A stretch of DNA of 64,000 nt from an uncultured Nitrospiraceae bacterium (GCA_964447405.1 CAYUSP010000003.1:691723-755722); one strand, 5' to 3'; shown: positions 9,971-29,736, counted from the first letter of the stretch. Notes: generated from the letters alone by a model not told the origin. Made by a program: numbers and translations.

Positions 9971-10103
9971 ACCGCAGAGGACGCAGAGGGGAAGCATGGC
10001 GAGGAAGGCAACGGCGGGCAAGGCATTAAGCTTTGTTTAAAAACCAGAAATAATTTTGAATTAAGATTTCCTTGGAGTTGATTTCCTCTGCTTCCTCTGC
10101 GGT
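9971..10103. repeat. Cargo-less inverted-repeat element: accgcagaggacgcagagg ... cctctgcttcctctgcggt, about 130 bp
   Basis: The left arm at 9971-9989 is identical to the left IR of the GxxExxY element at 12360-12381. The right arm at 10085-10103 is its imperfect reverse complement. The interior is AT-rich. Confidence 0.55.
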
Positions 10104-10114
10104 AACAATTATTT

Positions 10115-12091
10115 ATGCCTGAATTCAATCTCAACATTTTCCTCCCCGCAGCTGGCCTCGGTGAACGGCTCAGACCGATCACGAACCACATTCCCAAACC
10201 GCTCCTTCCGATACTCGGCAAGCCAATCATCGAAGGCATTCTCGATAAACTCACTCTTGTCTGCAACGGCAGCATAGGGATTAACCTCCACTACAAGCCG
10301 GATATGCTACGCGAATGGGCTGTACGATCTACCTGGGCTGACCGCATATCATTCTTTCCCGAGGACCCGATCCTCGGGACCGGCGGCGCGCTTAAGAACG
10401 CGGAGTCATTTCTCTCCAGCAGGAACTTCATCGTCCACAACTCAGACATCCTCCTTGATATCAACTTCACCCGCCTGATCGAAGAGCACCTCTCTTCAGG
10501 TAATATCGCCACACTTGTATGCCACCGTTTGCCGGAGCTTGCCAACGTCGTGATCGATACACACGGCCAGGTCCTGGATGTAGAAAACCCGGGAGCATCA
10601 AAACCGGACGCATCGACCACTGCGGACAAGGTCGCCTATACCGGCGTCGCAATCTACTCACCGGACATATTGCAGTTTCTGCCATCCGGCGTTTCACATG
10701 CCACGGTCGCGTGGATAGCCGCGTCCAAGGCTGGTTTTCGAGTGCGCGCCTGGGATGTCACCGGCTCGTACTGGAACGACGTGGGAAATCCAGTGACCTA
10801 TGCACGAGGTGTACTGGACGCCCTGCGTGAAAACGGGGAAATGGTGCATGTCTCCCCTGCGGCACGATGCGGGAACATCCTGAGCGACGGTTATCTGGTG
10901 CTCGAGTCAAACGGGGAAGTACAGGACAGCTCCCGGCTCAGGAATTGTATTGTGATGCCCGGGGCAAACGTTTCCGGCAGTCATGCGGACTGCATTCTCG
11001 GTCCGGACTACGCGGTCGCACTTACGGAATCCGACATGCAGCCGTCGGTCCATGCGGCGGAAAAGAAACGCGTATTGCTGAACGATCCGCTTTTCTCGTC
11101 GCACTTTGGGATTCACGCCATGAGCAACTGCACAGCTGCAACTCCCAACTCGCCATTCTGGTCCGACGCAATCCTGATAGGACTCGGCGGCTCGGATAGG
11201 CGCTATTTCCGCGTACGGAACAATGGTAAGACCGCGGTCCTCATGGAGTGCCGGCAGGATGATCCGGACTATGATCGCCATTTGATTTACACCAGGTTCT
11301 TTAAAGAACATACCGTGCCCGTGCCTGAGCTCATTGCATCAGACACTGAGGGCAAACGTGCCCTGTTCGAGGACCTCGGAGACACATCGTTGTACTCATA
11401 CCTGAAGCTTCCGCACGCGGCTTATGCAGTCGAGGAAGTCTATCGGAAGGTGCTCGACATCCTGGTGCAGCTCCACACCAGGGTCACGAATCATGTATAC
11501 GGGTGCCCGACACTCAGTGCGCGAGTATTCGACTATGATCATTTACGGTGGGAAACAGGTTATTTTATGGAGCGGCTCGTCACCGGACTGAAAGATATCG
11601 CGGCGTTTGATCGGGCGGCACTGGACAACGAATTCCACCGGCTTGCGGAGCGGACAGCTGCGTTGCCCAAAAGCGTGATCCACCGGGATTTTCAATGCCA
11701 GAATATCATGATCACGGATGGAGACATGCCGCGCGTAATCGATTTCCAGGGCGCACGCATGGCGCCGCCAGGTTATGATGTCGCATCCATGCTGTGGGAC
11801 CCGTACCACCGGCTGGATGAAGGCGTCCGGGAGCGCCTTATTGGTTATTATGTGGCGGAAATGAAGAAATGTTCGGAAAATTTCGATGAGCAGGCTTTTT
11901 TGAACAGCCTGATCCCCTGCCGGCTTCAGAGACATATGCAGGCTTTGGGTGCATTTGGATTTTTGTCTGTGGTCAAGGGGAAAAAATATTTCCGCAAGCA
12001 CATACCCGAGGCAATGCGACTGTTGAAAGAGGAGACTATCCTGGTCAAGGAAGAATTTCCGACGCTGGCATTGCTCGCGTCAACACTCTGA
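10115..12091 (+). CDS. Fusion protein: MurNAc-alpha-1-P uridylyltransferase (MurU-like NTP-transferase) + left-handed beta-helix linker + anomeric MurNAc/GlcNAc kinase (AmgK-like APH-fold kinase)
   Basis: 658 aa. The N-terminus ...LPAAGLGERLRPITNHIPKPLLPI... is a nucleotidyltransferase fold. The middle has hexapeptide-repeat-like stretches. The C-terminus has an APH/choline-kinase catalytic loop HRDFQCQNIMI and IDFQGA. It sits adjacent to the NamZ-like gene. Confidence 0.75.
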   Translation: MPEFNLNIFLPAAGLGERLRPITNHIPKPLLPILGKPIIEGILDKLTLVCNGSIGINLHYKPDMLREWAVRSTWADRISFFPEDPILGTGGALKNAESFLSSRNFIVHNSDILLDINFTRLIEEHLSSGNIATLVCHRLPELANVVIDTHGQVLDVENPGASKPDASTTADKVAYTGVAIYSPDILQFLPSGVSHATVAWIAASKAGFRVRAWDVTGSYWNDVGNPVTYARGVLDALRENGEMVHVSPAARCGNILSDGYLVLESNGEVQDSSRLRNCIVMPGANVSGSHADCILGPDYAVALTESDMQPSVHAAEKKRVLLNDPLFSSHFGIHAMSNCTAATPNSPFWSDAILIGLGGSDRRYFRVRNNGKTAVLMECRQDDPDYDRHLIYTRFFKEHTVPVPELIASDTEGKRALFEDLGDTSLYSYLKLPHAAYAVEEVYRKVLDILVQLHTRVTNHVYGCPTLSARVFDYDHLRWETGYFMERLVTGLKDIAAFDRAALDNEFHRLAERTAALPKSVIHRDFQCQNIMITDGDMPRVIDFQGARMAPPGYDVASMLWDPYHRLDEGVRERLIGYYVAEMKKCSENFDEQAFLNSLIPCRLQRHMQALGAFGFLSVVKGKKYFRKHIPEAMRLLKEETILVKEEFPTLALLASTL

Positions 12092-12334
12092 TACAATCGG
12101 CTGTGCGCCTCTATCCCTCATTGCTTTCTCCACTGCCGTGATTTGCTCGTTAAGCAACTTGCACTCTTCCTCGTATTCCGTGGTCAAATTCTGCGCTTTT
12201 TCGGCGCCGATGTGCACCGAGGTCTTCACGAAGGTGAATGAGTGCATGTCCTGCAGGTCGCACAGGTTATCCTTCAACCGCTTGAGCTCGGCTTTGAGTT
12301 CGTCGAAGGACATATCGTTATAATTCTTTGTCAT
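12080..12334 (-). CDS. Hypothetical small coiled-coil protein, 84 aa
   Basis: MTKNYNDMSFDELKAELKRLKDNLCDLQDMHSFTFVKTSVHIGAEKAQ... with an RBS gagg. It converges on the MurU-AmgK gene with a 12-nt 3' overlap. I recognise no family. Confidence 0.45.
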   Translation of the reverse strand: MTKNYNDMSFDELKAELKRLKDNLCDLQDMHSFTFVKTSVHIGAEKAQNLTTEYEEECKLLNEQITAVEKAMRDRGAQPIVSEC

Positions 12335-12359
12335 AACACAAACCTCAAAACCTTTTTTT

Positions 12360-12847
12360 ACCGCAGAGGACGCAGAGGAAGTCAAACCCGCTGGCCTATA
12401 ATCCGTTGGCGACTCTCTTAATGCCATCTTTCAAATGAACAACATTGAAGTTTATTAATAGCCCAAGCTTTTTATTGCTTAATTTCAGGTATGAAAGAAT
12501 TTGTGCTTCATGAATCGGCAATATTTTCTCAACTGCCTTCAATTCAACGATAACACAATTGTCAAGCATAAGGTCTATTCTATATCCGGCATCGATCTTC
12601 AAGCCATCATACAGGATCGGCAAGGCCATTTGAGAAAGCACGGTTAATCCGAGCTTTCGTAGTTCATGCAGCAAACATGCTTCATACGCGCTTTCCAGCA
12701 AACCAGGACCCAAAGCTGAATGAACTTTCATTGCAGCTTCAATAATCTTACCACTAACCCCATTTATATCCATTTATTCCAGACCTCCTGTCTATCCTGC
12801 CAGTTTTTGACCTCCTCGCCTCTCACCCTCTGCGTCCTCTGCGGTGA
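12360..12847. mobile_element. Inverted-repeat-bounded element carrying a GxxExxY gene
   Basis: The left IR accgcagaggacgcagaggaag (12360-12381) and right IR ccctctgcgtcctctgcggtg (12827-12847) are near-perfect reverse complements. They sit exactly between two housekeeping genes and abut the cca stop. Confidence 0.6.
12396..12773 (-). CDS. GxxExxY family protein (PD-(D/E)xK-like)
   Basis: 125 aa. ...GPGLLESAYEACLLHEL... contains the eponymous G-x-x-E-x-x-Y. The C-terminus ...IDLMLDNCVIVELKA... resembles a PD-(D/E)xK core. Confidence 0.8.
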   Translation of the reverse strand: MDINGVSGKIIEAAMKVHSALGPGLLESAYEACLLHELRKLGLTVLSQMALPILYDGLKIDAGYRIDLMLDNCVIVELKAVEKILPIHEAQILSYLKLSNKKLGLLINFNVVHLKDGIKRVANGL

Positions 12848-12851
12848 AAGA

Positions 12852-14270
12852 TTATCTGAATCTCTCCAGATACACCAGCGCCTCCTGCCTGGTCGCGATA
12901 ACTCCCTCTGCCTGCTTCTCCTTAATCTCCTCCAGAATCTCGCGAAACCGCGGACCCGGTGTAAGTCCAATCCCGATGAGGTCCTCACCCCTTATCAGTG
13001 GTTTCTCTTCGACCTTCAGGAATTTTGAAAAGTAGAATTCCAGGACCGCAGCCATGGTCTTCGAGGTGTCCGTAAACTTTTCCCTGGGCATGATCTCGAA
13101 TGTAGCGCGCGCGTCCGCCTGGGCAAGGAGCAGACTCTCCGGCACAGACTCTCCGAGATCGCGGCAGTAGCGGTACATGGCGTTTCTTCCCGGACCGCCT
13201 GGAGCGGAAAGATTAAACAGCCTCATGTGCTGTTTGATGACCCGGGTGACCGCTTTTTCCGTGTCTTTCGAGAGCTTCAATCGCCGGCAAATGCCCGCCG
13301 CCTTGTCCGCGCCCAGATTGTCGTGTCCATGGAACCGGACATGGCCGTCCGCATTCGTGAACGTCTCGGGCTTTGCATTATCATGGATAAGACAGGCGAA
13401 TCTGAGCGCTGCCTTTCTCGTGACCTGGTGTTCGAGCAGCTCATCGAGGTGCGCCAGTATAGCAGCTGCATGCTCTGGTGGAAGTGACTGCAGATCATCC
13501 AGTACCGCATCGATATACCCCGCTGTTTTTATGGAATGGGTCAGGACATCATGGACATGGTACCTGCCGGGAGCAAAGCCGCGGAGCGTTTCGAGTTCCG
13601 GCAGAAGCGGCGCGAGAAGACCAAGTGAATCCAGGAGCGTGAGATGCTGTTCAGCATTCCGTTCGGCAAGGATGATAAAGAGCTCATCCCGAACGCGTTC
13701 TGGAGCTGGCCGCGATATCAGGCTTGCGCGCTGCCGGATGTGCTCCGCAGTCGATGCCTCGATCGTACATCCCAACGCAGCAGCAAATCGCACTGCGCGC
13801 AAAAGACGAAGAGGGTCCTCATCCAGAACCTCCGGACTTGTCACGCGAATGACCCTGTTCTCCGCATCCTTTTTACCATGAAAGAGATCGATCAGTCCTG
13901 CAAGAGACTGATCACGCATGAACTCCCGCAGGTCAAGCGCCATGGCATTGATGGTGAAATCCCGACGGCCAAGATCGGCCTGCAGGTCAGGACCTTCGAA
14001 GTTCGTAAAATCGAACTGAAAGGAGCCATCGTTCTCATACTTCATGACGCGCGTTATCTTTCGATCTTCGTCCAGGAAAAAAAAACTGCCCTGAATCAGA
14101 TCAGCGAACGTGCGCGCCACAGCCTCCGAGCCTTCAGGCATGAGCAGGTCTATGTCCTTGAGGTCCTGTTTGCCTATCAGGAGGTCGCGGATAGCTCCGC
14201 CGACGAGATAGATGGGTTGGGGAGTTAATGAAAGCAGCTTGGCAAGATATTTCGAAGCGAGAGCATCCAT
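12852..14270 (-). CDS. cca: CCA-adding tRNA nucleotidyltransferase (PolyA_pol head + HD domain)
   Basis: 472 aa with ...VGGAIRDLLIG...DIDL... in a nucleotidyltransferase head, plus a C-terminal HD motif (...HDNAKP...). Confidence 0.85.
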   Translation of the reverse strand: MDALASKYLAKLLSLTPQPIYLVGGAIRDLLIGKQDLKDIDLLMPEGSEAVARTFADLIQGSFFFLDEDRKITRVMKYENDGSFQFDFTNFEGPDLQADLGRRDFTINAMALDLREFMRDQSLAGLIDLFHGKKDAENRVIRVTSPEVLDEDPLRLLRAVRFAAALGCTIEASTAEHIRQRASLISRPAPERVRDELFIILAERNAEQHLTLLDSLGLLAPLLPELETLRGFAPGRYHVHDVLTHSIKTAGYIDAVLDDLQSLPPEHAAAILAHLDELLEHQVTRKAALRFACLIHDNAKPETFTNADGHVRFHGHDNLGADKAAGICRRLKLSKDTEKAVTRVIKQHMRLFNLSAPGGPGRNAMYRYCRDLGESVPESLLLAQADARATFEIMPREKFTDTSKTMAAVLEFYFSKFLKVEEKPLIRGEDLIGIGLTPGPRFREILEEIKEKQAEGVIATRQEALVYLERFR

Positions 14271-14329
14271 GGCTGATACTTATGTATAGCAGAAAAACGC
14301 ATCACTTTCAGCGCAGCATTTCTGTCAGA

Positions 14330-15025
14330 TCATTCCCCGGTCGTTGCTTCCTGAGGTTCCTCACCCGTGATCTGCCTGATGTCCTTCAGCCGTTTTTTCC
14401 TGTCTTCCCGCACAACATACCAGTCATGAATGAGCGTCTCGATCAGGCCGATCAGGAGCTTTTCCTCGCCGGAGTCGGTGTCCTGAATTGCGGCCCCCTC
14501 ACTCTCCATCCGAGCTCCGATCATGCCGCTCCTGCGCACAGACTCGATGGCCTCCCAGGTGAGCGGGTCCACCGTGCCCTTGACCTGGCGGAATTCGTCA
14601 TTGAGACTGCCGGGTTGGACCTGCCAGAAATCACGAAGCATTGCGGAGAGGCAGCGCCGCGACAGGGCTGCAGCCACTTTGGGGCTGAACTCGGCGGCAA
14701 AACAAGCTTCCTGATAATCTTCGAGAATATTATGCGGAAGGGTTGTAGGAAAAGACCGGGCTCGTGAAGGCGGAATGAGCGGCCAGGTCTTGATGTGCTT
14801 ACCCGTGTAAGACCGGTGGTGGCCCGATGTCTCAAGGGTGTGCAGCGAAGCATTCAGGGAGAACCGGCGGCATTTCGGATTGGGGCAAACCACATACTTC
14901 ACCACCAGGCGGCGCGGTCCGTCTGCGTTTTCCCCGGTGAGATCAGCAAAGCTTACCTGACGGTCCGCATCGGACACGGTCTGGTCCGTGCCACAGAACG
15001 CGCAATTCCAGAAATATTCACCCAT
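14330..15025 (-). CDS. DUF4145 domain protein with an N-terminal zinc ribbon
   Basis: The start is taken at MGEYFWNCAFCG. The N-terminus has CAFCG...CPNPKC. The C-terminus ...LPHNILEDYQEACFAAEFSPKVAAALSRRCLSAMLRD... matches the DUF4145 pattern. It sits between cca and aroB. Confidence 0.55.
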   Translation of the reverse strand: MGEYFWNCAFCGTDQTVSDADRQVSFADLTGENADGPRRLVVKYVVCPNPKCRRFSLNASLHTLETSGHHRSYTGKHIKTWPLIPPSRARSFPTTLPHNILEDYQEACFAAEFSPKVAAALSRRCLSAMLRDFWQVQPGSLNDEFRQVKGTVDPLTWEAIESVRRSGMIGARMESEGAAIQDTDSGEEKLLIGLIETLIHDWYVVREDRKKRLKDIRQITGEEPQEATTGE

Positions 15026-15051
15026 GGCTTCCCTCCCTGATATGCATTCCC

Positions 15052-16134
15052 TTACTCCGCGAGCAGTGCCCGCAGATGCTGTTCCTCCCATTCCCTGGTG
15101 ACTACAACCTCGCCTATCTTAGTCGGCAGAACGAATTTAACTTTTCCCCCTTCTGCCTTTTTGTCGATCTGCATCGTTTCCATGAGTTCCGTCACGGACG
15201 GTTTTCGGCTGAGTGAAGACAGACTGGCCGGCAGTCCAAAGGAGGTGACGAGTTTTTCCACTCGCCCGGGGACCGACGAATCGCAGAAACCCGCTTTATG
15301 AGCAAGCCGCGACGCATAGACCATGCCGATGGCCGCAGCATGGCCATGGCGCATGGTGTAGTTCTCCGCAGTTTCAATCGCATGCCCCACGGTGTGGCCA
15401 AAGTTCAGGACCGCACGAAGCCCGCCCTCGCGCTCATCCCTGCTCACAACGTCTGCTTTGATCTCGCAGGACCGGCTGATGATATGGTTCAGTGCGTCAG
15501 CATCCAGCGAGAGGATCCTGTCGCGGTTTTGTTCGAGATATACGAAGAAGGCGCTGTCCCGGATCACTCCGTACTTGATCACTTCGGCCATTCCCGAGAG
15601 CAGCTCCTCGCGGGGAAGGGTCTTCAGCACTTCGAGGTCCATCAGCACTTTTTGTGGCTGATAAAATGCGCCGATCATGTTCTTGCCCATGCTATGGTTC
15701 ACGCCGGTTTTGCCGCCCACGCTGCTGTCCACCATGGCGAGGAGCGATGTGGGGACCTGAATAAATGGCACGCCGCGCATGAAGGTCGCGGCTGCGAAGC
15801 CGGTGAGATCGCCTATCACTCCGCCGCCCAAAGCTACGAGCGCGGAATTTCTGTCGAAGCTGTTGATCAGGAGCGCAGTGTAGATGGCATTCGCCCAATC
15901 AAGGTTCTTGTACTGCTCCCCGTCCGGCACCTCGATGGACATGACCGTGAATCCCGCGTTTTTAAGGCTGTCCGCGGCGCGTTTGCCGTACAGGCCCTTG
16001 ACCAGGGGATTCGTAACCAGGGCCATCTTTCTGCCGAGGCCCAGACCCTGCAGGCGGGCGCCGATATTGTCCAAGCTTGAACCGATCTCGATGTCATAGC
16101 TCCGGTCGCCGAGGTTGACACTAACAGTATGCAT
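15052..16134 (-). CDS. aroB: 3-dehydroquinate synthase
   Basis: 360 aa with a Gly-rich NAD site LGGGVIGDLTGFAAA and metal ligands ...NFGHTVGHAIE... Confidence 0.9.
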   Translation of the reverse strand: MHTVSVNLGDRSYDIEIGSSLDNIGARLQGLGLGRKMALVTNPLVKGLYGKRAADSLKNAGFTVMSIEVPDGEQYKNLDWANAIYTALLINSFDRNSALVALGGGVIGDLTGFAAATFMRGVPFIQVPTSLLAMVDSSVGGKTGVNHSMGKNMIGAFYQPQKVLMDLEVLKTLPREELLSGMAEVIKYGVIRDSAFFVYLEQNRDRILSLDADALNHIISRSCEIKADVVSRDEREGGLRAVLNFGHTVGHAIETAENYTMRHGHAAAIGMVYASRLAHKAGFCDSSVPGRVEKLVTSFGLPASLSSLSRKPSVTELMETMQIDKKAEGGKVKFVLPTKIGEVVVTREWEEQHLRALLAE

Positions 16135-16636
16135 ATTTAATTCTCTCTTTGATCTCTTGAATAACGTCCACCACGGACTTTTGGGACGTGTCGATGATCA
16201 CATCTGCCTGTGCGTAGAATTTTTCCCGGCTGTCGAGGAGTTCCTTGATGCGGGCCTTGGGATCAGGGGTCTGAAGCAGGGGGCGATGGGTTTCATGCTT
16301 GATCCGCTCGTAGATAACTTCGGGCCGGGCTGACAGGCAAACGACAAAGCCAGCCTTCCTGAATGCCTGCCGGTTCGTTTCCCGTATCACCGCGCCGCCG
16401 CCCGTGGACACTACCTGGCCTTCCTTCTCCATGACCTCATGAATGATCTTTTCTTCGATATCACGAAAATAGGGTTCACCGTGTGTTGAAAAAATCGAGC
16501 TAATGGTCATCCGCTGGTCTGCTTCAATGAGGAGGTCAGTGTCAACGAACTCATAACCCAGATCCTTTGCAAGCCGGGTGCCTACGCTGGTCTTGCCCAC
16601 GCCCATGAAACCAGTGAGAATGATATTATTGAACAT
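16121..16636 (-). CDS. aroK: Shikimate kinase
   Basis: 171 aa with a P-loop GFMGVGKTSVG. It overlaps the aroB start. Confidence 0.9.
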   Translation of the reverse strand: MFNNIILTGFMGVGKTSVGTRLAKDLGYEFVDTDLLIEADQRMTISSIFSTHGEPYFRDIEEKIIHEVMEKEGQVVSTGGGAVIRETNRQAFRKAGFVVCLSARPEVIYERIKHETHRPLLQTPDPKARIKELLDSREKFYAQADVIIDTSQKSVVDVIQEIKERIKYAYC

Positions 16637-16689
16637 ACTATTGATAAGAGGGAAACGTCGGTGAAGGATTCTATCTTACTTCTATCTTC

Positions 16690-17877
16690 TTACCTCTTCG
16701 CCTGCTCCTCTTCCCTCTCCATGCGAGCGTTCAGCTGTTTGTTGAACATATGATAGTTGCGTTTCATTTCCTCGATGCTGTCGCCGCCGAACTTGTCGAT
16801 CATGGCCGCTGCGATCTCGAAGGCAACCACTGCTTCCGCCACTACTCCTGCCGCGGGCACGGCGCAGACATCGGAGCGGTGCACGCTTGCCTTGAACGGC
16901 GTCTTGCTTACCAGATCAACGGAACGGAGCGGCTTCATCAGTGTGGGGATCGGCTTCATTGCCGCCCGAAGCGTTATGATCTCACCGTTGCTGATGCCGC
17001 CCTCGATCCCGCCCGCCAGATTGGTCTTGCGATAGAAACCGTCCTTCTTGTTCCACAATATCTCATCATGTACCTGGGATCCGGGCTTGTTGGCTGCACC
17101 GAATCCCGCACCGACCTCTACTCCCTTGATGGCCTGAATGCTCATGAGTGCGGCGGCAAGCCTGCTGTCGAGCTTCCGGTCCCAGTGCACGTGGCTGCCA
17201 AGTCCCATGGGCACACCGGTGATAAGCACCTCGAACACGCCACCCAGCGAGTCACCGGCCGCCCGTGCTTCATCGATCCGGCGCATCATGCGCTTCTCGG
17301 CCTCATGGTCAGCGCACCGCAGCTCCGATGCTTCCGCTTTTTTCCTGGTCTCTGCTGGTGCCATGGGTACCTTGGCATGGACATTCCCTATCGACAGCAC
17401 GTGGCTTATAACATCGATCCCAAATTCCTCAAGCAGCCTTTTTGCCACGGCACCTACAGCGACCCGCATGGCGGTCTCGCGTGCGCTCGACCTCTCCAGA
17501 ACGTTTCTTATGTCCGTGAATCCGTACTTCATGGCGCCGGCAAGGTCCGCATGGCCGGGACGGGGGCGGGTCACGGGGTCAGCAGAATTCAGGAACATGG
17601 GATCTGGTGACATCTTGTCGCGCCAGTTCTCCCAGTCCTTGTTGCGGACCATGAGGCCAAGAGGGCTGCCGAGCGTCTTTCCCCAGCGGACACCGGTGTA
17701 GATCTTGACCGTATCCTTTTCGATCTTCATCCGGTCACCGCGTCCGTATCCACCCTGCCTTCGGGCAAGATCACTATCTATATCCGTGACTCGTATCAGA
17801 AGGCCCGCTGGCAAGCCCTCAATAATGCCCATGAGCAGCTCGCCGTGCGATTCCCCAGCAGTCAGATAACGCAGCAT
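16690..17877 (-). CDS. aroC: Chorismate synthase
   Basis: 395 aa. [26 protein letters not shown]... is the canonical AroC N-terminus. Confidence 0.9.
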
Positions 17878-18549: not shown

Positions 18550-18583
18550 GTAGTCATCCGCATCGCTTCAAGGGGCGTCAGCC

Positions 18584-20246: not shown

Positions 20247-20807
20247 ATGGTTGGCTGGATACTGCTTGCTGTGCTTGGCCTGGTCATTATCTGGATCATC
20301 GTGATCTATAATGGGCTCGTATCGTTACGGAACGAGGTGCAGAATGCGTGGAAGCAGATCGATGTGCAGTTGAAACGCAGGCATGATCTGATCCCGAACC
20401 TGGTGGCAGCTGTGAAAGGCGCGCTGGAATTCGAACAGGACACCCTCGAAAAAGTGATTTCAGCCCGGGCAAAGGCCGTTTCCGCGGGATCTGCCGCATC
20501 CAAAGCCGACGCTGAGAACATGCTGACCCAGGCCATCGGAAAGCTCTTTGCCGTGATGGAGAACTACCCCGCGCTCAAAAGCAACGAAAACGTCCTGCGT
20601 CTCCAGGAGGAGTTGACCTCAACCGAGAACAGGATTTCCTTCGCGCGACAGTTGTATAATGACCTCGTTGCTAATTACCGGACCAGGCTCCAGGTCTTCC
20701 CGAACAATATCATTTCGTCAATGTTCAACTTTCAGACCGAGGAATATTTTTCAGCCGAGGAGCAGGCCAAGGCCACACCGGCTGTGAATCTGAGCATAAG
20801 GAAATAG
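20247..20807 (+). CDS. LemA family membrane protein
   Basis: 186 aa with one N-terminal TM helix plus the LemA core (...NAWKQIDVQLKRRHDLIPNLV...MENYPALKSNENV...). It ends with TAG. Confidence 0.8.
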   Translation: MVGWILLAVLGLVIIWIIVIYNGLVSLRNEVQNAWKQIDVQLKRRHDLIPNLVAAVKGALEFEQDTLEKVISARAKAVSAGSAASKADAENMLTQAIGKLFAVMENYPALKSNENVLRLQEELTSTENRISFARQLYNDLVANYRTRLQVFPNNIISSMFNFQTEEYFSAEEQAKATPAVNLSIRK

Positions 20808-20912
20808 AACGGACAGAAGTAAGAAGACAGACTGAACCAATATACCGCACGCTTGTATACCTTGTCTATTGTCTGACTTCTCTCTTCTGTCCTCTGTCTT
20901 CTGTCCTCTGTC
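20808..20912. repeat. Cargo-less CAGAAG/CAGAGG-type inverted-repeat element between LemA and the M48 protease
   Basis: The left arm is ggacagaagtaagaagacagac. The right arm is gtctgacttctctcttctgtcctctgtcttctgtcctctgtcttctgacc, with internal tandem tgtcctctgtcttc repeated twice. It is related to the arms flanking the four-helix-bundle gene at 29.3 kb. Confidence 0.5.
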
Positions 20913-20926
20913 TTCTGACCCTCACC

Positions 20927-22561: not shown

Positions 22562-22576
22562 AGGACGCGAACATAC

Positions 22577-23251
22577 ATGATCACGATTAAGTTATTTGCG
22601 AATCTGAAGGACAAGGCAGGAAAGAGCGAGCTGCATATAGCTGCACAACAACTCACCCTATCAGACCTTATTGAGCGGATTGCCCGGGAGCATCCCGCCC
22701 TGTCCGAAATGCTATCCTGCGGCAGGATCATTGTATCTATCAATCAGGAGCTCGCGGGCAGGGATGCACTGATCAAGGATGGCGATGAAGTTGCGCTTAT
22801 GCCGCCGTTCTCGGGAGGTGGTCCGTCAGCGGGCGTAGTCCGAATACAGAAAGAGCCTTTTTCCATAGAAGAGGAAACAACTCGGCTGAAAACCTCATCA
22901 GCGTCCATCGGAGCGATTGTGGCATTCCTCGGGACTACCCGCGATATATCCAGGAATAAAAAGGTATCCCAGCTGGAGTTCGAACACTATCCCGGCATGG
23001 CGGAAAAAATGCTTCTCGAGTTGAGAGAGCGGGCGATCAGGGATTATAGGATACTCGATGCGACGATCATACACCGCACCGGCATCATACCCGCGGGCGA
23101 CGACATCGTCCTCGTCCTCGTCGCGGCCGGGCACCGCGACGAAGCATTTGCAGCATGCCGCTTCTGCATTGATGAACTAAAGAGAACTGCGCCTATCTGG
23201 AAAAAAGAGACCACGCCGGAAGGCGAGGTGTGGGTGGAGGAACATCCATGA
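22577..23251 (+). CDS. Molybdopterin synthase MoaD-MoaE fusion
   Basis: 224 aa. The N-terminal roughly 85 aa is a ThiS/MoaD fold ending in the Gly-Gly-like segment ...MPPFSGGGP. The C-terminus is MoaE (...FLGTTRD...EFEHYPGMAE...). Confidence 0.8.
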   Translation: MITIKLFANLKDKAGKSELHIAAQQLTLSDLIERIAREHPALSEMLSCGRIIVSINQELAGRDALIKDGDEVALMPPFSGGGPSAGVVRIQKEPFSIEEETTRLKTSSASIGAIVAFLGTTRDISRNKKVSQLEFEHYPGMAEKMLLELRERAIRDYRILDATIIHRTGIIPAGDDIVLVLVAAGHRDEAFAACRFCIDELKRTAPIWKKETTPEGEVWVEEHP

Positions 23252-23372
23252 GGCAGAGGTTAGAAGATTGATGACAGGCAAACCCAATAAAGCTCTTTGG
23301 TTCAGACTGCTATCTTTAATCTCTTGTTAGTCTGTCTTCTGACAGTCTGTTCTTATCGTCTTTTGTGCTCAA
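23252..23372. repeat. Probable degenerate member of the CAGAGG/CAGAAG inverted-repeat element family
   Basis: The sequence is gaggcagaggttagaagattgatgacag ... tagtctgtcttctgacagtctgttc, with inner cagactg/cagtctg. It is wedged between the moaDE stop and the MerR-like stop. Confidence 0.35.
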
Positions 23373-23768
23373 TTATTTCTTCGCTACTTTTTTCCCGTCC
23401 CGGAGGAAGACAACGCAGGTTGTGCAGTCCGCGTCCTGCCGGCATCGGGTGGTTTCCCAGCAGGGTTTGCTCTTGTTCGTGAATGCCGTGCAGATTACCC
23501 GACGATCGTCCGGGCAGTCCCGTATCTCCCAGCAAGGTGCGTAATCAAGTAGTTTCTTGATCCCTTCAATGCTGATTTTCTTCGCATGGATCAGTTCACG
23601 GATACATCGCAGCCACTTAATATCATTTTCCGTATAGAGCCGGTTCCTGCGCTCCCGTGTCGGAAGAATGAGGCCGTGCTTTTCATAGAGGCGCAGCGTC
23701 TGTGCCGTCGTCCCGACGAGTTTGGCTGCAATACCCATGGTATAGAGCGGAGCATCCTTGTCTTTCAT
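23373..23768 (-). CDS. MerR-family HTH regulator with a Cys-rich C-terminal domain
   Basis: The N-terminal HTH_MerR is ...YTMGIAAKLVGTTAQTLRLYEKHGLILP.... The C-terminal 45 aa contains 7 Cys (CWEIRDC...C...CWETTRC...C..C). It is co-directional and downstream of ccdA. Confidence 0.6.
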   Translation of the reverse strand: MKDKDAPLYTMGIAAKLVGTTAQTLRLYEKHGLILPTRERRNRLYTENDIKWLRCIRELIHAKKISIEGIKKLLDYAPCWEIRDCPDDRRVICTAFTNKSKPCWETTRCRQDADCTTCVVFLRDGKKVAKK

Positions 23769-23818
23769 TGCATCGAGGCTTTCTGGTGCCATATGTTTTT
23801 TCTGTTCCCTTCGGATTT

Positions 23819-24535: not shown

Positions 24536-24729
24536 GCAGGATAATCTCCCTTTAAAAACAGCAATGCATAATACCAAAGCAGGTCAAATTTAGTCAAGCA
24601 ATACTTTTGTTATTCTCGGGTTGATGTGTTCTAAAGTTCAGACTATGCCGGGTTTTTCGCTTGATATTTCTCTGTTGCCGGCACACTCGTTCCGCACGCC
24701 ATTCCCACAGACACACGGCATTTTTTTTA

Positions 24730-24758
24730 TTGACAAAGAATGGCAAGTTCACTATTCT
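24730..24758 (+). promoter_or_regulatory. Predicted sigma70 promoter TTGACA-17-TATTCT for fchA-folD
   Basis: The sequence is ttgacaaagaatggcaagttcactattct, about 50 nt upstream of the fchA ATG, which is preceded by an RBS aggagg. Confidence 0.45.
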
Positions 24759-24806
24759 TCAGCTCGAATCAATCGCAGCAATTCTGTGCATAGGAGGATC
24801 AATTCG

Positions 24807-25433
24807 ATGTACATCGATCAACCGATACGACAGTTTATGGACAAACTGGCCAGCAAATCTCCCGAACCTGGAGGCGGCAGCGTAGCAGCGCTTACCGGAT
24901 CGCTCGGTGCGGCACTGGTAAGCATGGTCTCGAATCTCACCCTCGGTAAGGAAAAATACAAGGACGTTCAGCCTCAGATCGAACAGTTGCTCAAGGAATC
25001 GGAAAAACTGCGAACAGAAATGCAGGACCTCATCCAGAAGGACACCGAAGTATATGGCGCTCTTTCCGAAGTTTACAAGATGCCAAAGAATACTGATGCG
25101 GAAAAAGCTGCGCGCACTGCAAAGATGCAGGTGGCGTTGAAAAATGCCTGCCAGGTTCCCTTTGACATCGGGATGAAATCACTGGAAGTGGCGAAACTCG
25201 CCCGTCGCGCTGCCGATATCGGGAATGTTGGCGCGGTCAGCGACGCGGGCGTGGCCGTGCTGCTCGCCCAGGCCTGTGCGCAGAGTGCCGCGCTCAATGT
25301 CAAGATCAACGTGAACAGCATCAAGGATGATGCATACAACCAAGACACCTGGACACGCATGCAGGATGTGCTCGGCCAGGTTGCGGCTCTGGAAAAATCA
25401 GTGATGGAAACGACGTATAAGAAAATGGGCTAA
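24807..25433 (+). CDS. fchA: Methenyltetrahydrofolate cyclohydrolase / cyclodeaminase family (FTCD_C)
   Basis: 208 aa. ...LASKSPEPGGGSVAALTGSLGAALVSMVSNLT... is the cyclodeaminase/cyclohydrolase signature. It is adjacent to folD. Confidence 0.75.
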   Translation: MYIDQPIRQFMDKLASKSPEPGGGSVAALTGSLGAALVSMVSNLTLGKEKYKDVQPQIEQLLKESEKLRTEMQDLIQKDTEVYGALSEVYKMPKNTDAEKAARTAKMQVALKNACQVPFDIGMKSLEVAKLARRAADIGNVGAVSDAGVAVLLAQACAQSAALNVKINVNSIKDDAYNQDTWTRMQDVLGQVAALEKSVMETTYKKMG

Positions 25434-25570
25434 AATATTGGGTCATGTAGCATGGGTCAAGCAGCAAGGATCCAAGAGCGGGCGGTAACGATCTTGTTTG
25501 ATGGTTCTCCCCATGCTACTTGCTACAGTGCTTTTGCTACTTGACCCTCTTCGACGAAGGAGAAGAACAC

Positions 25571-26422
25571 ATGTCAGCTAAACTATTAACCGGCAAAGAA
25601 GTTGCTCAGAAGATGGACCAGGATATCCAGAAGGATGTCCAGGAGCTCAAGACGAAGGGTTGCAATCCAGCGCTCAGGATCATGATCGTGGGCGATGCGG
25701 AAGATTCGATCTTTTACGCGAACAGCGCAAAAAAGATGGCGGAAAAGAACGGCATTGCCTGTGAAATAGAGCAGGTTGCCGGAACTACAAGTCAGGCAGA
25801 CTTTGTCAGCACGCTTAAACAGCGGAACGCGGACAAGAACATTCACGGTATCATCGTCATGCGGCCGTTCCCAAAACAGATCAGCGAAGATGTTGTAAAA
25901 CACATTCTCGCTCCGGAAAAAGATATTGACTGCTTCAATCCAGTGAACGCCGGCAAGATCATGGCCGGCGATATGACCGGCTTCCCGCCGGCAACCCCCC
26001 AGGCAGTCATGGAAATCCTGAAATTCTATCAGATCCCCATGAGCGGCAAGGAAGCGGTGGTCATCGGCCGCTCCATGGTTGTGGGCAAGCCTATGTCCAT
26101 GCTGCTGTTGGGTGAGAACGCGACAGTCACCGTATGCCACTCAAAAACGCAGGACCTTCCTGGCGTTTGCCGCAGAGCAGACATTCTTGTTGCAGCAATC
26201 GGCAAGGCAAAGATGATCACAAAGGACTATATCAAGCAGGGCGCCACGGTCATGGATGTGGGAATTAATCCGGAAGGTGATAAGTTCGTGGGTGATGTGG
26301 ACACCGAACCGGCAAAGGATGTTGCCGGAGCTATAACTCCGGTCCCCGGTGGTGTGGGCACGGTCACGACGCGTGTGCTGCTCAAGCATGTCGTTAAAGC
26401 AGCGAAACTGCAGAACCCATAA
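25571..26422 (+). CDS. folD: Bifunctional methylene-THF dehydrogenase / methenyl-THF cyclohydrolase
   Basis: 283 aa with ...IVGRSMVVGKPMSMLL... and ...TPVPGGVGTVT.... Confidence 0.9.
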   Translation: MSAKLLTGKEVAQKMDQDIQKDVQELKTKGCNPALRIMIVGDAEDSIFYANSAKKMAEKNGIACEIEQVAGTTSQADFVSTLKQRNADKNIHGIIVMRPFPKQISEDVVKHILAPEKDIDCFNPVNAGKIMAGDMTGFPPATPQAVMEILKFYQIPMSGKEAVVIGRSMVVGKPMSMLLLGENATVTVCHSKTQDLPGVCRRADILVAAIGKAKMITKDYIKQGATVMDVGINPEGDKFVGDVDTEPAKDVAGAITPVPGGVGTVTTRVLLKHVVKAAKLQNP

Positions 26423-26576
26423 CGAGAGATCAATGGTTTTGGCAAGAACCAAGGACAAAATAGCAGAGCAAAGCAGAAATTCAGGTTTGAAAGCTGCATA
26501 GTACGTCGAACTTATACCTGTTACCGCCATTCCGGTGAAGAGCGGAATCCGGATTCACCGTTACATCGCATAACAT

Positions 26577-26618
26577 AAAAAACCCCCGGGAGATTGCTCC
26601 CCCGGGGGTTTGTTTTTG
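26577..26618. terminator. Rho-independent, bidirectional-looking terminator between folD and the convergent porin gene
   Basis: The sequence is aaaaaacccccgggagattgctcccccgggggtttgtttttg. A GC stem is flanked by an A-run and a T-run. A second hairpin ccggtgaa...ttcaccgg lies at 26532-26561. Confidence 0.7.
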
Positions 26619-26653
26619 CTTCCGTATCAGCACAATTACTGTGCGAACACGAT

Positions 26654-27952
26654 TTAGAACGCCATGGTAAGCACGCCCTGGATGTTGGTTGAAGCATCCT
26701 TGCCCAGACCTGCGCCCGGGATAAGATGGCCGACAACCCAGTTCCAGGTCACGCCATCAGCAAGCTTCCAGTTCGCCTTGAGGTCGATTTCGTTTCCGAG
26801 CTCGGAAGTATCTGCACCACCAACTTCCTTCTTGTTCGCGACCTTTTCCGTGGCCTGCAGAATCCAGATATCGCCGCCAATGCTCAGGTTCTTTGTAGCT
26901 GCGAACATGGCGCCTGCATTAAGCGCTGTGGTACCGCAGAAGCCCTGGTTCTTCGCGCCGCATGCACCAGCGACCAAGAATTCATAGACCAGCGTGTAGT
27001 GAACATCCTTGTCAAGGAAGGTGACCATTTGATTGAAGTCAGGTGAGGTCGAATTGCGCTTGACGCCGGAACCGCGGGCTACGGTAAAGTTCACCGTGAG
27101 AGCATCCATCGGCACTTTGCCTTCGATTACGATCTGGTTGCCCTTGAGTTTTGCCGAGGTGGTAGCACCCTTTGCTGTGCCAGACTGCATGTCAAGTTCA
27201 GCCTTGAGATCGATCGGGCCGACTTTGCCGCCAAAATGCAAGCCGACGTTCGTGGCTTTCGTGTCATAACCGGCTGTATTGAATCCAAAGCCATTTCGAC
27301 GGTCATTCGCCTGTAAGATGTTGATACCGGCTGTGGCATCACCAAACTTGTTGGTGGCAACGAGCACATAGGCATCAATGTCATCGCTGGCATTGATCGC
27401 TCCCTCGGAGATCTTCACATCCACTACGCCAAGATGGAGTCCGCCGAAATCAGCATAGGCTACTAAGGCATCGGAACCATACTTGTTGGAACGAATGAAC
27501 CAAGCATTGCTGAGCTGAAGGAACATATGACCAGCCTTGAAAAAGACTGGCGTTCCCGGGATCGGGGTCAGGAGCCATGCTTCGCGAAGCTTGATGCGGC
27601 TTGCGGGACCAGTGGTGGCAACGTAATTGCCAGCTGTATTCGTGCCACCGGTCACTACCGTCGTGGTTCCCTGCTCTGCTTCATATCTGCCGAATGTGTC
27701 CCAGTCGTTCTCGATCGTCACTTTAGCCTTGGCATCGCCTGCCTTGGCATTAATGTCAATGCGAACTCTCTCCTGCGTGCTAACGTCTCTTGTGGCGCTC
27801 GTGTCAGCTGTTGCATCACTAAAATCCAGGTTGTTGAAATTCTTGCTTCTCAAAAATACCTGCCCGCCTATGGTAACATCCGCGGCCAGGGCCACCGTAC
27901 TGATCATAACCATCGCCAGTGCCAACAGTACTACGAAATACTTCTTCATCAT
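26654..27952 (-). CDS. Outer-membrane beta-barrel protein (porin-like)
   Basis: 432 aa with signal peptide MMKKYFVVLLALAMVMISTVALA. The body is Gly/Thr/Asn-rich with alternating strands and a C-terminal ...LTMAF ending in Phe. The upstream leader is long and AT-rich. Confidence 0.7.
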   Translation of the reverse strand: MMKKYFVVLLALAMVMISTVALAADVTIGGQVFLRSKNFNNLDFSDATADTSATRDVSTQERVRIDINAKAGDAKAKVTIENDWDTFGRYEAEQGTTTVVTGGTNTAGNYVATTGPASRIKLREAWLLTPIPGTPVFFKAGHMFLQLSNAWFIRSNKYGSDALVAYADFGGLHLGVVDVKISEGAINASDDIDAYVLVATNKFGDATAGINILQANDRRNGFGFNTAGYDTKATNVGLHFGGKVGPIDLKAELDMQSGTAKGATTSAKLKGNQIVIEGKVPMDALTVNFTVARGSGVKRNSTSPDFNQMVTFLDKDVHYTLVYEFLVAGACGAKNQGFCGTTALNAGAMFAATKNLSIGGDIWILQATEKVANKKEVGGADTSELGNEIDLKANWKLADGVTWNWVVGHLIPGAGLGKDASTNIQGVLTMAF

Positions 27953-28665
27953 TCATCCTCCCTTAACATTGATTTTGCCCCGAATTGCTCCGGAACACAA
28001 GGTAACCTCTTTTTTATCTACAACTCAAAATGATGCCGATGCATTATTGCGGTTTATTGGGACAGCACCCCCCCTTTCATCTTTGTATCAAAATTTTGAA
28101 CAAACGAAGGATAGAGACTCAAGTCCACATAGTGAGCTGATGTGCATTTCAAATTTTACTGCATTTCTTGTATTTTTTTTGCGGAATCCCTTGCTGCTGC
28201 TTTTGGGACAACTGATGTATTGCTCAACGCGAACACGTTGGCAATGGTGATATGTAGGTCTGTCAGTGGTTATCATTGATTGATAATTTCATACGAATCT
28301 GCCACTAGCACAAACAACTACAAACAACGAAATGTGAAAACCGGGGAAGACAAAACACGTGATGCAAGCATTCAATGAGCATTTGGAAGCAATTGAAGTA
28401 GGGCAAATATAACAAAGTCGCATAGTCAAGTCAAGACTTTTCTACCTCATTGAAATGGGAATAAAACATGATCAGTTGCAGATTACCGAAACTATAAACT
28501 CGCTGACTTGCTGACGTAGAAAAGATTGCCCGCGCATATAACACCATTCATTCATGAAACAGGTCCCAAAAAGTCTGACGTACCTCAGCTGCGATTTGAT
28601 CAATCAGTCGGACCTGTGGCTAACCAGTCGCCGCCAATTCCCGGGATCATCATTTCAGTTTCCCC

Positions 28666-29313
28666 TTGCCATCACAAATAACTCATGCTATAACGCTCGT
28701 CATGTCAACCTCTCCCTCCTTAGAAGAACAGATAACGATGGCGGGCCTCACATACGGACGCCGCCACGACATCGCATACCGCTCCGGCATGGTGCTCCAG
28801 GTATGCGGTGCTGCCTTGCTCGCTGTGCTGTATCCGCTCGACAGCCCGTTCTATACCATAGGCATCATGCTGTTCGAAGCCGGCGTACTGCTTTCTGCAA
28901 TCTATCTTCTCGTTTGGATGCGCCCGGTCAAGAAGATAATAGTCGGGTCGGTGATCGCAGGGCTCGTTCTTCAAGTAGTCGGTGCCTTCGCGGCCCCGGA
29001 ACAATATGCGGGTCTGGTTCTGCTCTCAGGAATCGGGCTCGTCTGCGCTGGAGCGGCTGGGATGGTCGGCAATGAGGCGTTTTGCTTTGGATACCGTGAA
29101 GGCTGGGTGCTTATGCTGGCTGGATTTCCCGTGATGGTCCTGGCAAATCTGCTGCTCAGAGAGAACCGCATTTTCAATTCGCTGGGTTTCTCCGTTATTT
29201 TTTTACTGCTGCTTTCACTTACAGGCAAGAAGCTAAGGCAGAAATTGCTTTCTTTACCCTCTACAAGCGTTTGCGGGGTGTCGGAGAGGACAGAAGTAAG
29301 AAGTAAGAAGTAA
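28666..29313 (+). CDS. Hypothetical polytopic membrane protein
   Basis: 4-5 predicted TM helices. The start is uncertain (alternatives 28702 or 28738). No family is confidently recognised. Confidence 0.45.
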   Translation: MPSQITHAITLVMSTSPSLEEQITMAGLTYGRRHDIAYRSGMVLQVCGAALLAVLYPLDSPFYTIGIMLFEAGVLLSAIYLLVWMRPVKKIIVGSVIAGLVLQVVGAFAAPEQYAGLVLLSGIGLVCAGAAGMVGNEAFCFGYREGWVLMLAGFPVMVLANLLLRENRIFNSLGFSVIFLLLLSLTGKKLRQKLLSLPSTSVCGVSERTEVRSKK

Positions 29314-29736
29314 GAGAACTACCAAATATAATTCGTCCAACATGAAAAAACATAACTTCAGAAATCTAAAAATCTACCAACGAGCCATAGCATTCGCTGT
29401 GGATATTTACCAGATCAGCAGGAGTTTTCCGCAGGATGAAATTTATGGGCTGACAAGTCAGATACGACGGGCCGCAACTTCAATCCCCCTTAATATTGCC
29501 GAAGGCAGTGGCAGCACATCAGGAAAAGAGTTTAGGCGATTTCTTGAAATTGCTTTACGTTCTGATTATGAGGTATTGGCCTGTCTGGAAATATCATTAC
29601 GATTGAATTACTGCAATCATGCGGTTTTTGAAAAACTGACTCAGGAAGCAAACGAAATAGCATCCATGATAGCTGGATTCTCAAAAAGCCTATAATCTTA
29701 CTTCTTACGTCTTATCTCCTTTTTCTTTCTTCTGTC
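29286..29736. mobile_element. Inverted-repeat-bounded element carrying a four-helix-bundle gene
   Basis: The left arm is gaggacagaagtaagaagtaagaagtaagag (29286-29316). The right arm is cttacttcttacgtcttatctcctttttctttcttctgtc (29697-29736), which ends at the stop codon of the sigma54 response-regulator gene. gtaagaagtaag/cttacttcttac is an exact reverse complement. Confidence 0.6.
29342..29695 (+). CDS. Four-helix-bundle protein (the so-called 23S rRNA intervening-sequence protein family)
   Basis: 117 aa. MKKHNFRNLKIYQRAIAFAVDIYQISRSFPQDEIYGLTSQIRRAATSIPLNIAEGSG... is the hallmark of this family. Confidence 0.85.
   Translation: MKKHNFRNLKIYQRAIAFAVDIYQISRSFPQDEIYGLTSQIRRAATSIPLNIAEGSGSTSGKEFRRFLEIALRSDYEVLACLEISLRLNYCNHAVFEKLTQEANEIASMIAGFSKSL

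Follow-up and report, generated by a model that had tools for sequence, protein, structure and literature searches.

Two palindromic cassette families with cargo-specific arms between genes of an uncultured Nitrospiraceae bacterium and in other bacteria

Results

Inverted-repeat elements and their cargo genes

The window analysed in this study is a 64-kb stretch of DNA (64,000 nucleotides; GCA_964447405.1, CAYUSP010000003.1:691723-755722) from an uncultured Nitrospiraceae bacterium, and the subject is a set of five intergenic inverted-repeat elements, two of which carry a small gene coding for a GxxExxY protein and a four-helix-bundle protein, respectively. The elements were located by repeat scan, motif scans, shuffles and RNA folding. 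We are confident that they represent two palindromic cassette families, named here type A and type B, whose arms are cargo-specific and conserved in sequence, which recur in other bacteria and which leave empty derivatives. The elements and their cargo genes are listed below.

9971-10103, no strand: type A element, empty; arms ACCGCAGAGGACGCAGAGG (9971-9989) and CCTCTGCTTCCTCTGCGGT (10085-10103), spacer of 95 nt
12356-12849, minus strand: type A element with a gene; arms 12356-12378 and 12827-12849
12396-12773, minus strand: GxxExxY protein, 125 aa, PD-(D/E)xK fold, cargo of the 12356-12849 element
20808-20912, no strand: type B element, empty; left arm GGACAGAAGTAAGAAGACAGAC (20811-20832), right arm 20871-20912
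23252-23372, no strand: degenerate type B-like element; GGCAGAGGTTAGAAG on the left, GTCTGTCTTCTGAC on the right
29286-29736, plus strand: type B element with a gene; left arm 29286-29315, right arm 29696-29736
29342-29695, plus strand: four-helix-bundle protein, 117 aa, 23S rRNA intervening-sequence protein family, cargo of the 29286-29736 element

The empty type A element at 9971 separates the NamZ stop (9961) from the MurU/AmgK start (10115). Its arms of 19 nt each were 95% complementary in the repeat scan, and the RNA fold of 9965-10110 gave -56.8 kcal/mol (z -5.6). The gene-bearing type A element lay between the CCA-adding enzyme stop (12852-12854) and the start of an 84-aa gene (12334), with the CCA-adding enzyme, GxxExxY and 84-aa genes all on the minus strand; its 23-nt arms were 96% complementary (repeat scan), and in the fold of 12350-12855 on the minus strand (z -4.1) the terminal stem closed the structure. 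The empty type B element sits in the gap that runs from the LemA stop (20807) to the HtpX-like start (20927). Its right arm consists of five 7-nt units, CTTCTGT or CCTCTGT, reaching 20912; the 22-nt segments 20811-20832 and 20871-20892 were 86% complementary (repeat scan), and the fold of 20805-20920 gave -33.4 kcal/mol (z -3.5).

The left arm of the gene-bearing type B element is made of GACAGAA followed by three GTAAGAA/GTAAGAG units, and the right arm is TCTTACTTCTTACGTCTTA...CTTCTGTC (29696-29736). The segments 29297-29315 and 29696-29714 (19 nt) were 95% complementary, and the outer GACAGAAG and CTTCTGTC lengthen the element to 29286 and 29736; in the fold of 29275-29745 (z -3.7) the terminal stem again closed the structure. 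Both flanking stops lie inside the arms, that of a DUF2301-like open reading frame (ORF) at 29311-29313 on the left and that of a sigma-54 regulator at 29735-29737 on the right. The C-terminus of the DUF2301-like ORF (28666-29313), ...SERTEVRSKK before the stop, is encoded by the purine arm 29286-29315; GTAAGAA heptamers give a TAA stop in all three frames, and an orthologue of this ORF (in L225) ends alike, ...NQEVRGRK before the stop. The element at 23252 is flanked by the convergent MoaD/MoaE (stop 23251) and MerR/HspR-like (stop 23373) genes, and its fold (23248-23376) was weak, with a z of -1.4 and 19 of 200 shuffles equally stable. It is plausibly a degenerate type B member by motif and by purine-then-pyrimidine polarity, not by energy. 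An earlier note on this DNA had named five inverted-repeat elements; four were clear (z -3.5 to -5.6), and the element at 23252-23372 was the weak one.

Stems across the window elements were 19-30 bp and loops 38-448 nt. The elements occupy the intergenic gaps to within 0-15 nt and abut or overlap the ends of the flanking genes, as the earlier note had stated. These flanks are ordinary genes, namely NamZ, a MurU/AmgK fusion, CCA-adding enzyme, LemA, HtpX-like protease, MoaD/MoaE, MerR/HspR-like regulator, DUF2301-like membrane protein and sigma-54 response regulator. No transposase family was found among the genes tested, in agreement with the same note.

With up to 3 mismatches allowed, the 18-mer CCGCAGAGGACGCAGAGG was found 4 times where 0.11 occurrences were expected, and 0 of 100 shuffles gave as many. 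It is exact at both type A left arms (9972 and 12361), which bears out the reported 19-nt identity of these arms. The 15-mer GACAGAAGTAAGAAG is exact at 20812 and 29289, and the same tolerance of 3 mismatches gave 10 matches where 0.99 would be expected. When the 64 kb was scanned with regular expressions for the two motif families, these five loci alone were returned. The shuffles, together with the conservation of the 5' ACC in other genomes, ruled out a chance or low-complexity origin.

Type A arms and GxxExxY genes

Type A arms take the form ACCGCAGAGG-ACGCAGAGG-... with units of 9-10 nt, and the window members are at 9971 and 12356. The consensus covers about three units, ACCRCNRAGG-ACRCRRAGG-NNCRCRRAGG, and the unit variants CGCAGAGG, CACAGAGG, CACGAAGG and CACAAAGG were found at GxxExxY loci. 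The sample consisted of 80 metagenomic loci fetched via the protein (58-84% identical); L-numbers such as L021, L123 and L249 are labels of fetched loci or contigs. A bracketing inverted repeat of the type A motif with a score of at least 30 was present at 46 of the 74 testable loci, shuffled controls scoring about 15, and most of the remaining loci had type A arms in weaker form. Across the 80 loci the motif reached a density of 3.6-3.75 per kb up to 200 nt from the gene, and at distances above 400 nt it was mostly at 0-0.3 per kb; its density within 200 nt of GxxExxY thus exceeds that further off about 30-fold. This concentration indicates that the arms belong with the gene and not with every intergenic gap. 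The purine arm lay mostly upstream of the gene (57 vs 30) and the pyrimidine arm mostly downstream (54 vs 24).

Type A arms can hold other small modules. At L116 6322-7095 the type A arms AACGCAGAGGACGCAGAG and CTCCGCGTCCTCTGCGTT surround a HicB-family antitoxin gene (PF05534, E 1.8e-9), upstream of which, within the arms, there is an 84-aa ORF that may be the HicA partner. Arm-like inverted repeats around larger genes of 406 aa and 716 aa were seen at L107 2013-3507 and L079 4353-6751, respectively, and each may represent a pair of adjacent half-elements instead of a single cassette; the 406-aa product is decarboxylase-like by eye.

A one-genome-per-species scan of 596 Gb for GCAGAGGAMGCAGAGG returned at least 120 loci. 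Several hundred chance matches were estimated in 596 Gb, so the raw count says little and the context of the matches is the informative part. A C preceded 77% of the 131 type A core matches listed, and ACC preceded 24%; the arm elsewhere keeps the ACC or AAC 5' extension and inverted partners. About 45 of the listed matches lay in long-arm hairpins, often perfectly co-varying, with spacers of 9-250 nt. The matches listed came from Acidobacteriota, Planctomycetota, Chloroflexota, many Cyanobacteria, Verrucomicrobia, Proteobacteria, Nitrospirota and others, and most type A hairpins among them were empty. A GxxExxY gene stood between the arms in L117 and close to the motif in L048 and L021. Type A arms and their inverted partners thus recur in many phyla and are not unique to the window, and the suggestion of hairpin-forming element families in the earlier note stood up.

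The exact 18-nt type A arm occurred 22 times on IMG/VR viral-class contigs (L227-L248). About half of these matches were empty hairpins with arms up to about 50 nt, and no GxxExxY or four-helix-bundle gene was found on these contigs.

Type B arms and four-helix-bundle genes

Type B arms are built of 7-nt units (NNCAGAR, GTAAGAA), and the window members are those at 20808, 29286 and probably 23252. The heptamer units seen were GACAGAG, GGCAGAG, GACAGAA, CAGACAA, GTCAGGA and GTAAGAA, with the purine-rich array upstream of the gene and its complement downstream. These arms were low in complexity in multiple alignments. Heptamer arms were present at all 8 of the 8 four-helix-bundle contexts that could be fetched: the window, DUF2130/cas10, cas1/cas2, tRNA/UDP-glucose dehydrogenase, selA/selB, the DUF2301 orthologue, L249 and L254. 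The four-helix-bundle cassettes were located at L212 2353-2923 (cas1/cas2), L202 2381-3028 (DUF2130/cas10) and L223 2971-3393 (selA/selB), and these three gene pairs are normally tightly linked. L209 and L202 have the same four-helix-bundle gene and downstream gene with differing upstream contexts, and the switch (about 2330-2500) falls inside the heptamer array; it is due either to recombination at the array or to an assembly join at the repeat.

Both cargo genes occur together in a single operon (L249 3145-13605) with the order SNF2 helicase, four-helix-bundle gene, DUF559-N6/N4 methyltransferase, GxxExxY and ResIII helicase. Heptamer arms surround the four-helix-bundle gene, and arms of the TTTAACCGCAGAGGACGCAGAG... 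/ ...CTCTGCGTCCTCAGCGGTAAG form surround GxxExxY. No four-helix-bundle gene was found in 1.1 Mb of loci fetched via type A arms or GxxExxY genes. As each gene has its own arm type in L249 and the 1.1 Mb held none of the four-helix-bundle genes, two families are indicated, and a single family for all five elements was ruled out. The earlier note had assumed one CAGAGG/CAGAAG family; there are two, with unlike unit lengths and each with its own cargo. Its remark that both cargo families occur in hairpin-bounded settings was confirmed by the arms found in other organisms. The L249 operon is restriction- or defence-like, with BrxC/PglY-like genes about 7 kb downstream.

Cargo proteins

The cargo calls of the earlier note were well founded, with family profiles well above the cut-offs. 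The GxxExxY protein scored 149.7 bits against TIGR04256 (cut-off 35) and 145.3 bits against PF13366 (PDDEXK_3; cut-off 22, E 1.3e-42), the latter over nearly the full profile length. Residues G23, E26, Y29, D66, E76 and K78 are invariant among homologues, and the protein has the restriction-endonuclease-like alpha/beta core with the D...(D/E)xK motif of the PD-(D/E)xK superfamily intact. The structural model (predicted local distance difference test, pLDDT, 90.8, confident) was closest to Cas4, followed by the nuclease domains of Dna2 and restriction enzymes; a PDB sequence search gave no solved relative. An exact protein look-up matched the window locus only, and at least 8000 homologues were found at E <= 1e-10, so the family seems multi-copy and very widespread. 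The function of PDDEXK_3 is not known, and its phylogeny has multiple transfers between divisions (PMC3424549).

The four-helix-bundle protein scored 123.7 bits against TIGR02436 (cut-off 24) and 128.7 bits against PF05635 (23S_rRNA_IVP; cut-off 33.8, E 1.2e-37), and it matched the solved structures 2gsc (XCC0516, E 1.6e-14) and 2rld. There were 7396 homologues at E <= 1e-8, and single-protein and profile searches showed no relatives on viral contigs. The family takes in Avd of diversity-generating retroelements. Genes of 23S_rRNA_IVP have been placed within cas loci, with repeats unmentioned (PMC3936711). Both cargo proteins are, as judged from the sequences, under strong purifying selection.

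Sequence constraint on the arms

Between the window GxxExxY gene and five homologues, four-fold codon sites were 35-42% identical, which is near saturation. The arms of the same five homologues matched ACCGCAGAGGACGCAGAGG at 17-19 of 19 positions (89-100%). In a type B orthologue pair, 29 of 32 left-arm positions were identical, compared with 40% at four-fold sites, and in distant lineages the unit changes in both arms together. On these comparisons, the arm sequence is conserved far above the neutral rate.

Orthologous sites and empty derivatives

The host is Nitrospirota-like; among the relatives on record, the MurU/AmgK orthologues of the nearest are 73% identical. Synteny is complete in one locus, L123, where the order runs from the CCA enzyme through the GxxExxY element, the small gene, MurU/AmgK and the hairpin to NamZ. 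Identities to the window were 71% for the CCA enzyme, 80% for GxxExxY, 68% for the 84-aa gene (L123 3433-3678) and 67% for MurU/AmgK, and GxxExxY was therefore the best-conserved gene of the block. The "selfish orphan" cargo of the earlier note is too simple in view of this difference from the housekeeping neighbours (80% vs 67-71%) and of the strong purifying selection. A syntenic orthologous element at the 12356 site was also inferred in L122 from flanking sequence, and in L224-L226 the same DUF2301-like gene is followed by an orthologue of the 29286 cassette.

The 9971 element has a decayed orthologue at the same junction of L123, with one unit lost per arm. At the NamZ/MurU-AmgK junction, L217 has a hairpin with a different unit, CACGAATNG, L216 has a degenerate ACCAG.../CACGAAGG-type hairpin, and L218 has no hairpin. 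A pyrimidine-rich tract with a period of about 7 nt (CCCCTGC CCCTGGA CCC...) was seen just downstream of the MurU/AmgK orthologues at L216 11986-12060 and L217 11983-12080, reminiscent of the unit CCCCAGT of cyanobacterial short tandemly repeated repetitive (STRR) sequences.

This synteny in relatives means that the window copies are old and vertically inherited. The four window type A arms are alike at 18-19 of 19 positions, and the L123 copies have drifted; such homogeneity fits either continued constraint or homogenisation in the window lineage. The inner stem of the 9971 element, GGCGAGGAAGGCAA / TTGATTTCCTC, is common to GxxExxY-bearing elements of several sources, with a TTGAYTTCCTC form of the right segment. 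Since the 9971 element shares sequence beyond the arms with filled elements, as internal gene loss would leave, it looks like a deletion derivative.

Orientation and transcription

No sigma-70-like promoter was found in the elements scanned (9971, 12356 and 29286), nor was a T-run terminator-like site, and an intrinsic terminator was rejected at these three elements. GxxExxY had the same orientation as the upstream neighbour in 38 of 42 cases and as the downstream neighbour in 33 of 42, and the four-helix-bundle genes shared the strand with adjacent genes in the contexts fetched. Being without a promoter and co-oriented with their neighbours, the cassettes look promoterless and read through from the host unit, and we are confident that both families sit inside host transcription units. 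In a read-through transcript the arms must meet, giving a duplex of at least 19-30 bp. Rfam 15 gave 0 matches at gathering thresholds in the whole window, and in 9900-13000 the matches were at chance level only (E up to 5).

Further hairpins and neighbouring genes

One further hairpin, alike in build, lies outside the five elements:

3083-3160, no strand: hairpin of the 7-nt unit GAGTTCG TAGTTCG GAGAT / ATCTC CGAACTC CAAACTC CGAACTT

It is found between the same-strand type II secretion F and E genes, carries no cargo and folds with -29.5 kcal/mol (z -3.1). No occurrence of the motif families was found in 30000-64000, and all six hairpin elements lie within the first 30 kb. A pyrimidine-rich tract with a 7-nt period (CTTACTT CTATCTT CTTACCT) at 16665-16700, between the genes for shikimate kinase and chorismate synthase, may be what remains of a solo arm; the hairpin candidate 16630-16700 was rejected, with a z of +0.4 that is not above shuffles and without a convincing purine partner. 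A weak inverted repeat, GTAGCATGGG / CCCATGCTAC, was seen between two genes at 25429-25537 with TGCTACT TGCTACA on the right, and this candidate (25425-25540) was rejected as weak (z -1.5).

The 84-aa protein (12080-12334, minus strand) is conserved and encoded directly downstream of the GxxExxY cassette. It had no Pfam or NCBIfam match, and the stop end of its gene runs 12 nt into the end of the convergent MurU/AmgK gene.

Discussion

The reading that we favour, with a probability of roughly 0.55, is that of two related palindromic cassette families whose transcript stem is processed and whose arms are recognised by a sequence-specific factor. Each cassette would consist of a purine-rich direct-repeat arm, an optional small promoterless gene with its own ribosome-binding site, and a complementary pyrimidine-rich arm. 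Read-through from the host unit would transcribe the cassette, and the arms would pair in a stem of at least 19-30 bp, drawing the host flanks together. RNase III would probably cut this stem, as it does in 23S rRNA intervening sequences, and stem formation and cutting would make an insertion inside operons tolerable. The arms would be recognition sites, for which the most economical candidate factor is the protein encoded between them. This protein may maintain, homogenise or spread the arms, in the manner of the REP-associated tyrosine transposase (RAYT) with REPINs, the hairpins formed by repetitive extragenic palindromic (REP) sequences, and the empty hairpins would derive from cassettes by deletion and live on as intergenic hairpins of a REP-like or STRR-like kind. 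A bolder version, in which each protein and the specific tandem-repeat arm it recognises form a two-part system that colonises operon gaps, is kept harmless by transcript pairing and processing, and leaves behind empty hairpins including STRR-like ones, is put forward tentatively, and we would sooner expect it to fail than to hold.

A number of observations speak against the favoured reading. Across 32 bracketing stems, sense-strand mismatches were G.U-type in 40 cases and A.C-type in 37 (p 0.82), and an RNA-wobble signature was thus absent. Without a G.U excess, RNA pairing is not visibly the selected property, and since both arms are held to one consensus, their complementarity is largely a by-product. 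We read this as selection on sequence, for example a candidate binding site, rather than on RNA pairing as such. Positional orthologues were present at all three testable sites (12356, 9971 and 29286), where flanking proteins are 67-82% identical, and no clean filled/empty polymorphism was found in the relatives compared. Target-site duplication was found at 0 of 36 type A hairpins (flanking direct repeat of at least 3 nt), and hairpin ends often continue into non-conserved complementary sequence with no fixed termini. Some Acidobacteria-type loci have the gene between two complete hairpins and not inside one, and type A arms can enclose other genes, namely HicB in L116 and genes of larger size in L079 and L107. 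Cutting of the arm stem by RNase III is proposed by analogy, and binding of the cargo proteins to the arms is a predicted, candidate interaction. The non-autonomous mobile family suggested by the earlier note is upheld in part by the inner stem that the empty 9971 element shares with filled ones, and not by the orthologous-locus comparison, which gave positional orthologues without insertion polymorphism, or by target sites.

The elements could instead be host regulatory hairpins of the REP/BIME (bacterial interspersed mosaic element) or STRR kind, which stabilise upstream mRNA, separate cistrons or couple translation, with the small genes as passengers. The NamZ/MurU-AmgK hairpin is kept in at least three further relatives despite differing units, the elements fit exactly in gaps between same-strand genes, the purine arms have repeated AGGA/GAGG Shine-Dalgarno-like cores, and most hairpins among the matches listed are empty, all of which suits such a role; STRR hairpins in cyanobacterial operons have been given a proposed role in transcript stability or translational coupling (PMC2670836). 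We nevertheless consider it doubtful, as the arms are concentrated about 30-fold beside GxxExxY genes, each cargo family has its own arm type even within one operon (L249), a purely structural role needs no conservation of arm sequence across phyla, and neither a G.U bias in the stems nor a T-run terminator signature is present. The missing wobble signature suits a mobile element acting at the DNA level, in which the GxxExxY nuclease would cut at or near the arms for homing-like conversion or transposition, the empty copies would be non-autonomous partners and the arms multi-site transposon ends. A conserved motif of about three units, in inverted copies, does flank a nuclease-like gene with an intact D...ExK motif and a Cas4/RecB-like fold, empty copies far outnumber filled ones among the matches listed, and the window arms are homogeneous (18-19 of 19) while the L123 orthologues are decayed. 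Empty hairpins on viral contigs offer a possible route between hosts, and PDDEXK_3 transfers between divisions are on record (PMC3424549). This explanation is possible, though on balance we do not expect it to prove correct: target-site duplication is lacking and outer ends are variable, the window elements are at orthologous sites in relatives with no insertion polymorphism found, the cargo has diverged less than the housekeeping genes beside it, suggesting that it keeps a role in the cell, and type B, whose cargo is not a nuclease, is left unexplained.

A benefit of the cargo genes to the host, in defence or nucleic-acid surveillance, is another possibility, with the arms as operator-like sites for autocontrol. 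Four-helix-bundle genes do occur inside CRISPR-cas loci, beside cas10 and between cas1 and cas2, in line with their published placement (PMC3936711), and the L249 helicase/methyltransferase operon holds both genes with BrxC/PglY-like genes about 7 kb downstream. Strong purifying selection on both proteins and the one type A cassette with a HicB antitoxin-family gene point the same way. The neighbours in the window are housekeeping genes, however (NamZ, MurU/AmgK, CCA-adding enzyme and DUF2301-like membrane protein), other contexts include selA/selB and a tRNA gene, and many arm pairs have no gene between them, and we regard defence modules as unlikely.

Own conserved arms for each family provide a concrete candidate ligand for two very abundant protein families of unknown function, with thousands of close homologues of both in environmental bacteria. 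Processed, sequence-recognised cassettes would also explain genes wedged in unrelated operons such as cas1/cas2, selA/selB and restriction-modification-like ones, and for annotation it is a warning that GxxExxY and four-helix-bundle genes are probably cassette cargo and not functional partners of their neighbours. Rather than being treated apart, as so far, rRNA intervening sequences, REP-like intergenic hairpins and heptamer STRR-type repeats would be linked. If the two-part system were true, it would be a new and very widespread element class, comparable to RAYT/REPIN and based on a PD-(D/E)xK nuclease and an Avd-like protein, and the origin of empty repeat hairpins, including STRR-like ones, would be explained.

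Comparison with known systems

The Coxiella 23S intervening sequence is 428-444 nt long; its terminal stem measures 28 bp, the loop contains an S23p ORF, and the element is a substrate for cutting by RNase III (PMC4990558). The type B cassette resembles the 23S rRNA intervening sequences of Leptospira and Coxiella burnetii in having a PF05635 gene as an ORF in the loop of a terminal-inverted-repeat stem, in its similar size (451 nt for the 29286 element) and in lying inside a host transcript without its own promoter. Unlike these sequences, which are found in helix 9, 25 or 45, the window element lies between protein genes, and Rfam finds no rRNA in the window. Its arms are 7-nt tandem repeats conserved across unrelated hosts, and purifying selection acts on its ORF; that of Coxiella, by contrast, is reported to be in decay.

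The cassettes resemble the REP/REPIN-RAYT system in being short, palindromic and intergenic, in abutting the ends of genes, in having many copies without a gene, and in a nuclease-type gene flanked by the same repeats inverted; in both, the repeats are homogeneous within a genome and differ between lineages, and the gene is vertically inherited. The proteins differ, as RAYT is an IS200/IS605-type tyrosine HUH transposase and the cassette proteins are PD-(D/E)xK Cas4/RecB-like or 23S_rRNA_IVP. Unlike REP, the arms are tandem 9-10-nt units and not a single imperfect palindrome, and one arm consensus is common across phyla, with a GxxExxY family of at least 8000 matches at E <= 1e-10.

The type B arms (20871-20912 and 29289-29315) are like STRR sequences in their 7-nt period and in forming hairpins in intergenic gaps. 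STRR units include CCCCAGT, TTGGTCA and CAACAGT, which differ from the type B units. Since the host is no cyanobacterium and the units have other sequences, the likeness is one of form only. STRR heptamer hairpins occur within cyanobacterial operons such as hupS/hupL, with transcript stability or translational coupling proposed and the mechanism not given (PMC2670836), and heptamer direct repeats with an odd cross-phylum spread have also been described, again with no mechanism given (PMC4679880). No four-helix-bundle gene between STRR arms was described in the papers searched.

As in miniature inverted-repeat transposable elements, copies without a gene retain the terminal inverted repeats of a gene-bearing relative together with part of its subterminal sequence; the filled copies differ in having no transposase, no target-site duplication and no fixed outer ends. 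Integron cassettes likewise contain small promoterless ORFs, including toxin-antitoxin genes, that are co-oriented with their neighbours and hairpin-associated, and the loci with a gene between two complete hairpins recall the attC arrangement. In most loci, unlike attC, the arms pair across the gene and do not form one site after it, and the stems are long and near-perfect, with tandem units as their building blocks. The elements occur scattered among housekeeping genes and not arrayed by an integrase; the window elements end in ACC...GGT by eye, and no integrase was found among the neighbouring genes tested.

Open-access full-text searches with arm strings, family accessions and names returned no description of the cassettes, which is an absence there and not proof of novelty. 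The cassettes are a variation on intervening-sequence-like, REP-like and STRR-like elements, through which both protein families gain a candidate nucleic-acid partner.

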